A stretch of DNA of 64,000 nt from NCBI GenBank assembly GCA_951406725.2, contig OX597824.1, positions 68,076,001-68,140,000 on the forward strand, read 5' to 3'. The DNA is from Octopus vulgaris. Its lineage: Eukaryota. The notes beneath the pieces are model-generated. The model searched no databases and was not told the origin of the DNA. It worked only from the letters and a program-made list of their open reading frames with translations. The position numbers and the translations under genes are program-made. Below, piece by piece: positions 54,401-57,400 of this stretch; the first letter of the stretch is position 1; each line of letters begins with the position of its first letter.

Positions 54401-57400
54401 ATCTTATCAATTGCAAGTTGGTGCATATGTATATGCATAAATTATGCAAATTATACAGATCGTACAACTTATGCATAAATCCCTGCAAATAGATATGCAG
54501 CAATTTGTAATTGATACGATCGAAACACATGTCGGACAAGTATTTTGAATAAACCAGTCAGAAAGTCTGAATGTTCAACTTCTTCGTTTTCCTTATTATC
54601 AGTATATATATATATATGTATATATATATATATATGTATGTATATATATATATATATATATATGTATGTATGTATGTATGTATATATATATATATATATA
54701 TATATATATATATATATATATATATATATATATATATATATATATATATGTATGTATATATATATATATATTATATATATATATATATATATATATATAT
54801 ATATATAATTATATATAATTATATATAATTATATATATATATATATATATATATATATATATATATATATATATATATATATACACATATACAACGTGGC
54901 TCGGTGTTGTTGCTGCAAACGAAAACATCCTGGATCCGTTTTTACTGACAAACACTCAATATGCGTCAACTACAAATTCACCAAAATGCATCAACTACAA
55001 ATTCACAAAGGTTTCTTCTTTCTCTACTACAGTTTTTACTCCTCGCAACTTTGTAGCGATCTTCACAACCTGGTTTGCACCCCGTTTATTAGTTTGGTTA
55101 ATATTGAACGTATGTCATAATCCCCGTACTAATGATGCCACCCACTACTTTCTTCCTAAACTGTAACCCTCTTTATTTCTTCGCCCTAGGTTTTTTTTTC
55201 TTTTCCTCTGCAAATACCGTCCTACGAGTGTTCAAACTAAACATCAACAGCATATGAACATTAACATTGGATCTTTTCGGTTTGAACGGCAGTTTTTAAC
55301 ATAATTTCTAGGTAACTAAAAAATTTTAAACTTCGTATACTGGTAGAATGTGTTTATAAAACATCTTTTTCTCTTGGCTTTATTGAGAAAATTCTATAGT
55401 TTTTAAGATATTTGTTGTTTGTTTTTCCTCAGTTTCTGCAATTTCAATCAATCAGTGACGTCTATTGAGGTAAAAAAAAACATTCTGTGCCGTATGAATA
55501 TGTCCCTCGTTTAAGAAACAGATTTGGTTTATTTACATTTGTGAAGAAAAAAGATACCCTTCCCCCACCTCTAACCCTAACCCTAAAACAGATTGAAATG
55601 CAATAGATCGATTCTAGGGTCATAATTATGGGTGCCATTTTCATATGACACCGCTAGAAATAACTGCCGTTCAAACCGAAAATATCCTTAACATTATCTA
55701 AACGCTGACATCAGTATCATCATTATCTAAACACCAACAGTGTGAGGACATCAACATCTCACCGGTCTTGGCAGGCTTTGCAAATGCATTTAACTTTATA
55801 AATTTTCCTATGAGAAATAGGTGTATATGAATGAACGCATTAGAGTATATTTACATACATATAAACTAGCATATATGCATGTATGTATGCAATTATATGT
55901 ATAAAAAATACTTGCCTTTTTACTATCAACACATATAACAAAGAAGCGACTAGTTCAGCTACACTCATCATGAGAAAGTTGAAATACACATTTCCTCCCA
56001 AAGATTCTGACATGAAGTAAACACTGGAGAACGCTGTCATCTCAAGGAACCTCGAATTTAAAAAAAGAGAATTTATACTTCCGCTTTCCATATTAGATTT
56101 TAAAAATTCAATTACAGAAACAAAATACTATTTTCGCTCTCGAATGATTATTTTTTCCGTAATTGATACAAACTTTACAGAGCAACATTAAAATGACTTG
56201 CAAATATTTAGTCACAATTCTTCTTCTGAGCCCTGAGTTCAAAACCTCTCGGTTGTATCGATTATGTCTTCCGTTCTTCAGCGTCAATAAAGTAATAGAA
56301 AAACAAATATTTCTGAAAGTTGAAGTGTCTTCCCATTGTATTACATAAATGCGACAAATATTTCATGGGTGTTGTGATGAGCTACTGACCATTTCTAACA
56401 TATTCTTCCGGAAACACAACCTGTACTGTTAAATGGATCTTCCCGCCTTTACGATAAAATAAATACCAGTAATATAATGAACCAGGAATATTAGCACATT
56501 ATTTACATTATTTACATTCGACATATATTTGTCCTCATCTTGTTTGTTGTTAACACTAATACAGTTCTATATTTAAGAGATGAGGAATTATGTACAAGTG
56601 CTAACAACAAACAAAATGAGGACAACTATCTGTCGAATGTAAATAATGTAAATAATGTAAATAATGTACATAATTCCTCATCTCTTAAATATAGAACTGT
56701 AGGAATATTAGATTGTTTTCTATTTCATTCTAAATTTCATAATGTCTGCAATTAAGAAAACCATCATTGTTACTCGCCAAAATCCACACGAACTCGATCG
56801 ACCACCATTTAGTTCTTAAGCTCTGTAACCATTTGGAGTATAATAAATAAATTGCGTCAAGATCACAACTTATTACAAGCAAAATTTCTAAGGGACCCCC
56901 AGCTTATTGCAAGCAATATTTCTAAGGAGCTTCAACATATTGCGAGTATTAGTTGAAAGGAACCCCAACATACTGCAAGTATTACTTATAAAGGACCCTA
57001 GCTTAAACAATACTTCTAAGGGAACCCAACATATTGCAAGTAATACTTCTATATCAAATACTGTTTCTAAACACTATATAAATTGAAGTGCAAAAACTAT
57101 ATACTCTAGATGGGGATCTTTTTGGTTTGACCGGTAGTTTTTTAAAATAATTTCCATGTAACTAAACACTTTTAAGCTTCGTATACTGGTAGAATGTGTT
57201 TATAAAACATCTTTTTCTCTTGGCTTTATTGAGAAAATTCTGTAGTTTGTAAGATATTTGTTGTTCTTTTTCTTCAATTTCTGCAATTTCAACCTATCAA
57301 TGACGTCTATTGAGTTAAAAAGCATTCTGTGCCGTATGAATATGTCCCTCGTTTAAGAAACATATTTGGTTTATTTATATTTCTGAAGAAAAAAAGATAC

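Follow-up and report, generated by a model that had tools for sequence, protein, structure and literature searches.

The insertion at positions 56484-56711 of the window (the whole 64,000-nucleotide stretch of octopus DNA analysed here) was probably copied, like a small minority of insertions of its family, from RNA that had cleaved itself at a hammerhead ribozyme. The insertion alone proves little, because one or two insertions with both arms starting at the cut are expected by chance (roughly 1-2 per 2000 pairs, the number of pairs being assumed; 3 of 162 arms, ~2-3%, start at this base). The argument is carried instead by the types of junction found at the cut across the genome. For most of the family the template appears to have been uncleaved RNA, with cleaved-template events amounting to a few percent of arms. 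The initial annotation had taken the 3' cleavage product to be the reverse-transcribed template; judged by junction types, this is likely for the insertion and a small class of similar ones, but not for the family at large.

Throughout, +1 denotes window position 39010, the first base after the predicted cut, and -1 denotes 39009. The insertion is bounded on both sides by the 11-bp duplication aggaatattag that had been read from the sequence at the outset, and alignment to the reference copy agrees that the forward piece, from 56598, and the minus-strand piece, from 56556, both begin at the equivalent of 39010, with bases upstream of the cut left unmatched (Table 1). It had been described as two tail fragments; all of it does lie 3' of the predicted cut, with no hammerhead inside, no tandem ribozyme units and no tRNA-like head, but it is made of three pieces, the third occupying 56557-56596. 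Over their first 42 bases, pieces A and C disagree at 4 positions. What looks like four bases of filler separating A from B is simply how the tail runs on into the open reading frame (ORF; +86 to +89), so that B is joined head-to-tail onto A, in the same orientation and with zero shared bases, that is, without microhomology.

Table 1. Positions in the window of the reference terminal repeat and of the parts of the insertion
Feature	Position	Strand	Remarks
Reference pLTR copy	38698..39098	+	Inverted arm +14..+58 at 38711-38755, then forward repeat
10-nt duplication of reference copy	38698-38707 and 39089-39098		Overlaps the tail by five bases
tRNA-like segment	38758..38833	+	A-box- and B-box-like motifs, by eye
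(AAT)n microsatellite	38834..38919	+	Inside the pLTR
ATG-initiated frame	38940..39092	+	Runs through hammerhead and tail; RT-bearing ORF in longer copies
Minimal type I hammerhead (predicted)	38969..39014	+	Predicted cut between 39009 and 39010
8-bp palindrome TGTTAACA	39011..39018	.	+2..+9, adjoining the cut; junction hot spot, main confounder
Local near-identical duplicate of reference copy	40107..40396	+	Duplicates 38690-39027, left flank included; ends at +18
Target-site duplication, left copy	56484..56494	+	11 bp, aggaatattag
Piece A	56495..56556	-	pLTR tail +1 to ~+52, one extra 9-nt unit; short 3' end, Penelope type
Piece B	56557..56596	-	Tail +50..+89; head-to-tail onto the +1 start of A
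Single base at inverted junction	56597	.	Matches neither neighbour; likely untemplated
Piece C	56598..56700	+	Tail +1 to +85, two extra 9-nt units; long 3' end ('tail'), Penelope type
Target-site duplication, right copy	56701..56711	+	

The cut is placed by a predicted hammerhead with a 5-bp stem I, a CUGAnGA core, an extra base before stem II and a palindromic ACGU stem III. A hammerhead fold is obtained in one register only, with stem I pairing 38969-73 with 39010-14, which bears out the earlier reading of 39010 as the first base after GUU. The motif is intact in many copies of the family; no Rfam hammerhead model matched it, and the Rfam scans returned only microsatellite and chance matches. 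A sister family (L282, L285, L290, L294, L297, L305 and L308) has the same hammerhead core with different flanks, and its copies mostly lack the palindrome after the cut, having GTGAT or GTGGT in its place, which makes this family a natural control. At a further locus, L030 (G000:C30:17290903-17294070), at least six units, each with hammerhead and tail, form a tandem array resembling a non-LTR retrozyme.

On its sequence, the parent of the insertion is the terminal repeat (pLTR) of a Penelope-like retrotransposon with a protein-coding ORF, and not, as first annotated, a stand-alone 'tRNA-hammerhead element'. A 34-nt pattern from the tail has 1209 exact matches in the genome (2.8 Gb in 227 contigs), and most insertions, in the first 92 loci of this list, are head-to-head pairs. 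The 3' ends of 162 arms are bimodal, falling at +50 to +60 or at +82/83, the latter being the end of the query, and one long and one short end were combined in 184 of 201 pair calls, some of which are not independent of one another. Two near-full-length, decayed copies, L272 (G000:C1:7950500-7956000) and L279, run from tail through ORF, stop codon, tRNA-like segment, AAT run and hammerhead to a second tail. The ORF opens with an ATG lying 70 bases upstream of the cut, and its frame crosses hammerhead and tail. In the copy at L129 it contains a reverse transcriptase domain above cut-off (PF00078), a domain that homologues of the ORF also carry; at its C-terminus, Atlas look-alikes at 0.97 have PF01541 (GIY-YIG) in 18-27% of members and the motif is visible by eye, with no Pfam or PDB endonuclease match. 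A stand-alone tRNA-derived SINE can be set aside, since the tRNA-like head follows a leader that traces back to the ORF stop, shared by at least 16 copies among the matches listed, and the repeat is continuous with the ORF.

The box-like motifs at 38758-38833 were compared by eye with the consensus, and we take this segment to be tRNA-like; neither ARAGORN nor Rfam matched it. It lies 22-30 bases past the ORF stop and forms the start of many copies, which suggests that pLTR transcripts may be driven by Pol III. No report of a tRNA-like segment in a pLTR was found in the literature searched. Other repeats, 450-600 bases long, have inserted into the AAT run inside the pLTR (L019, L028, L042). 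Further downstream, the tail changes length in 9-nt steps between +39 and +56 throughout the family, and deletions at the cut most often remove 3 nt; neither kind of change disturbs the frame of the ORF.

A sharp peak of 5' boundaries at GUU^ had been put forward as the mark of a ribozyme-made template. No such peak is present, and boundaries are scattered along the whole repeat. Among 97 arms picked only by a tail-internal pattern, 84 read through the cut, to -8 or beyond, 13 begin between +14 and -2, and two begin at +1 by a strict call. Truncation per base in these arms was 0.010 in +10 to +1, ~0.001 in -3 to -28 and ~0.006 in -29 to -60, the last two computed by hand from the list of arms.

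Two filtered searches of the genome gave 953 and 238 matches; the first 100 rows of each were inspected manually, leaving out deletions and anything beyond -15. Junctions numbered 8 at +15, 5-6 at +14, 3 at +13, 4 at +12, 2 at +11, 5 at +10, 4 each at +9 and +8, 2 at +7, 6 at +6, 2 at +5, 6 at +4, 8 at +3, 5-6 (plus 6 palindromic) at +2, 5 at +1, 4 at -1 and 7 at -2, with a further 29 spread over -3 to -15, six of them at -8. An automated check on 59 of the 200 rows counted 5 at +1, 5 at +2 and 6 at +6, again a broad hump from +6 to -2. Neither the 97 unselected arms, the 200 filtered rows, 100 further rows nor matched counts contained a single-base peak at +1. This absence alone is not evidence against a real RNA end, because the natural 5' end of the tRNA-like head is itself blurred over ~12 nt among copies, and for the same reason a histogram of boundaries has low power.

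Searches of the whole genome directed at single positions gave a similar picture. At +1, 66 matches resolved into 28 junctions, deletions (4 long, 19 small), 6 substitutions or insertions and 9 redundant array rows; at +3, 50 matches gave 45 events with 19 non-deletion junctions; at -3 there were 5 matches and 4 junctions. Junctions at +1 exceed those at -3 (28 versus 4, p=0.002), and do not differ from those at +3 (27 versus 19 non-deletion junctions, p=0.46 after correction for the filter). An upstream control (782 matches, of which 100 were read) gave 41 junctions, the rest being dropped as sister-family rows (~25) or deletions. Per position there were 32 junctions in this control (-41 to -61), 53 at +2 to +15 and 71 at +1; after a rough normalization by hand for its weaker anchor and the fewer arms at risk, the control is level with +2 to +15, and +1 stands at ~1.3-1.5 times background. 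This control weakens an apparent step-up in truncation downstream of the cut, part of which is the trough at -3 to -28.

These counts would also fit an origin of the insertion by ordinary 5' truncation and end-joining at a junction hot spot, a copy with two +1 starts having been picked after the fact. This is the most serious competitor of copying from cleaved RNA, and we nevertheless regard it as unlikely. Scattered boundaries without a sharp peak agree with it, as do the one or two double +1 insertions expected by chance. The site is rich in repeats that could promote joining: the palindrome at +2 to +9, an ACAC shared with stem I, a GTTAA shared with the tRNA-like head, and an AC-rich run. 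At +3, 12 of 45 events used the GTTAA match. Small deletions across the cut were considered as scars of re-ligation; with 10 events against 7 in the AC-rich tail they are hardly more numerous than there, they resemble slippage between short direct repeats, and they were rejected as a sign of cleavage. What truncation at a hot spot leaves unexplained is the concentration of microhomology-poor head-to-tail joins at +1 to -2, together with the distribution of palindromic junctions described below.

We scored a long head-to-tail join when a downstream segment of tail or ORF was placed directly before an arm start, and tallied such joins over 322 distinct truncated arm starts between -80 and +30 in the loci fetched. 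They were present at 7 of 36 starts at +1, most of these arms coming from the +1-directed search with a filter that forced a non-T at -1, at 1 of 18 starts at -1/-2, and at 2 of 268 starts elsewhere. Comparison of +1 with all other starts gives 7/36 versus 3/286 (Fisher p about 1e-5), with only the joins at L075 and L353 coming from searches not aimed at +1. The matched +3 search contained no head-to-tail join among 45 events (21 of its 50 rows were fetched, the others judged from the listing). With matched searches at +1, +3 and -3, the join site is resolved to about +1 to -2.

The +1 joins are those at L075, the insertion in the window, L246/L229, L256, L257, L264 and L265; the others lie at -1/-2 (L353), at +9 through a shared stretch (L251) and at -12, upstream of the cut (L361). 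The +1 joins look independent, because their donors end at different places (+46, +89, +144, +222, +290, +291 and +318). Microhomology at them is slight or absent, some have a few extra bases, and in none of these insertions does a piece clearly extend upstream past the cut, the most being two T's whose match may be fortuitous. L264 and L353 share the three-piece design of the insertion in the window. Joining of the tail end specifically to +1 does not recur (the insertion in the window is the only case, 1 of 2 matches), and the class emerges only when ORF donors are counted; automatic head-to-tail calls at L101, L139, L215 and L239 were dropped as spurious short matches. Several +1 ends are followed by re-copied AC-rich bits, including three 17-nt units in L255, and L265 (G000:C28:27709800-27712300) contains a satellite-like array with a 46-nt unit spanning +1 to +46. 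A local re-copying run is also present at -3, in L270.

The second line of evidence comes from inverted junctions. Arms meet in register through the palindrome at +2 to +9 at 51 loci, and through an equal 8-bp palindrome at -54 to -47 at 7 (p=0.002 after a rough correction), a ratio that faster loss of longer palindromes may inflate. In 7 of the 50 loci listed the arm extends one base further and stops exactly at +1, and in none does it take the -1/-2 form. Against 16 other transversions spread over 31 classes, the +1 variant gives a corrected p=4e-5, a post hoc figure. At the upstream palindrome the one-base variant is present in 0 of 7, a small control, and a generic one-base flap remnant is compatible with these numbers. 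Neither the 7 one-base extensions to +1 nor the excess of 51 over 7 is accounted for by truncation at a hot spot. The +1 arms include six whose partner reaches far upstream. A correlation between partner arms (10/15 versus 1/11 by hand) comes from selected loci, with short partners making up 18-46% in the other bins, and counts as weak support.

A further possibility is that no cleavage occurs, and that the hammerhead core, folded or bound by protein, makes reverse transcriptase stall and then jump or be joined at that point. The broad hump from +6 to -2 without a spike, and the trough inside the ribozyme, would fit stalling, and the anole ribozyme is reported to fold only with protein (PMC11167929). 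Stalling predicts ends near +6, at stem I, and near -8, at stem II; head-to-tail joins are not seen at either, and most arms pass the hammerhead structure unhindered. We therefore consider this improbable, more so than truncation at a hot spot. Less probable again, and very unlikely in our view, is a genuine RNA 5' end at +1 produced by a protein nuclease or by internal transcription initiation; junction data reveal an end and not its maker, but neither origin would explain why the end falls at the scissile bond of an intact hammerhead. Splicing or back-splicing at +1 is unlikely, there being no acceptor (TT, not AG, precedes +1).

Copying from self-cleaved RNA could proceed as follows. By analogy with the anole Poseidon element (PMC11167929), the element's enzyme would cut both target strands and prime one cDNA at each of two start sites. 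Both cDNAs of the insertion at 56484-56711 would run off a real RNA 5' end at +1, and one would continue into a second tail segment (+89 to +50), reached by a jump between templates or through earlier ligation of the 5'-OH end to another RNA end; the data fit both. At cut ends the polymerase may add bases, jump, or anneal through the terminal palindrome, and the two cDNAs would then be end-joined head to head. Copies made from cleaved template would be dead ends, because the cut removes the head and the start codon.

The initial annotation had seen in the two junctions an indication that the ribozyme is active in vivo. The head-to-tail joins at +1 and the excess of palindromic junctions argue for activity, the boundary peak failed, and it is from these junctions that we infer cleavage. 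It is a tentative suggestion, perhaps worth no more than a minority bet, that the Penelope hammerhead cleaves in germ-line cells, leaving a 5' end at which template jumping or RNA ligation is favoured. If this is true, cleavage would cap the element's own copying by removing head and start codon, head-to-tail repeats would seed small satellites such as the 46-nt array at L265, and Penelope repeats could in this way turn into tandem retrozyme-like arrays. A cut-site junction class that can be counted is indirect evidence of cleavage in living germ cells, and gives an estimate of how rarely cleaved RNA would be copied (a few percent of arms). Testing junction types is better than a histogram of boundaries, and is applicable to any high-copy family.

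The remainder of the window contains microsatellites, transposon remnants and transporter-like exons. Exons with matches to sugar/MFS transporters lie at 10928-11527, 16541-16975 and 59542-60018, on both strands, which suggests a cluster of transporter genes. Mariner-, helitron- and LINE-like remnants were recognized by eye. On the minus strand, the end of a frame at 60217-60711 looks by eye, from its motif, like the C-terminus of another Penelope-type endonuclease; this frame has no Pfam match.

In the anole Poseidon study (PMC11167929) the tail signature is traced to two reverse-transcription start sites with cleavage of both strands, uncleaved RNA is the dominant substrate, and no RNA-seq reads ending at the cut are reported; the hammerhead is dispensable for insertion in this one reconstituted Penelope-like system. 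According to PMC4209133, minimal hammerheads cleave poorly in vitro, evidence in vivo is absent, and cleavage followed by circularization is proposed, and PMC8557442 describes the function of ribozymes in Penelope-like elements as unclear. The passages of PMC13282606 considered do not mention ribozymes. Run-off of R2 cDNA from a ribozyme-cut end, with extra bases and joins of a similar kind, is documented in PMC3774820, and cut-site junctions have been taken as in vivo evidence for the Perere-3 twisters (PMC8501958). U6/L1 chimeras arise from RtcB ligation before retrotransposition (PMC6789731), and RtcB circularizes animal retrozymes (PMC7229834). Cut-site junctions in Penelope-like elements were not reported in the literature searched, the coverage of which was incomplete.

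In its design the octopus element is closest to endonuclease-bearing (EN+) elements of the Penelope/Poseidon type (PAc, PMC11167929; Adineta Pen2a, PMC3846280; PMC8557442). It shares with those described there an RT-bearing ORF that starts in the pLTR and overlaps the hammerhead, an inverted 5'-truncated arm, a 3' extension of ~25-35 nt on one arm and a short target duplication; it differs in that a tRNA-like segment followed by an AAT run separates the ORF stop from the hammerhead. For PAc no RNA ends at the cut were reported, whereas the junction class in the octopus family points to such ends. With the minimal type I hammerheads of metazoan Penelope-like elements (PMC4209133) the octopus motif, a predicted ribozyme, shares the core, the extra base before stem II, the G10.1-C11.1 pair, the short helix I and the palindromic stem III, which implies a dimer.

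Cut-site 5' junctions and extra bases at run-off ends are shared with the R2 HDV-like ribozyme (PMC3774820) and the Perere-3 twisters (PMC8501958). In those elements the cut sets the normal 5' end of full-length copies, whereas in octopus it would remove a promoter-like head and the start codon and would concern a few percent of arms. Ligation of a 5'-OH end, as in U6/L1 chimeras (PMC6789731) and retrozyme circles (PMC7229834), would yield +1 joins of like appearance, but the octopus donor ends are not ribozyme cut sites, and the extra bases in some joins agree better with a jump of the polymerase. Non-LTR retrozymes (PMC7229834; bioRxiv 10.64898/2026.07.22.740005) and the Schistosoma hammerhead SINEs (PMC6765202) are short non-coding hammerhead repeats related to the pLTRs of Penelope-like elements. 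The tandem hammerhead array at L030 is the one instance of this kind in the octopus family; the insertion at 56484-56711, by comparison, carries no hammerhead, and belongs to a family that is continuous with an ORF.
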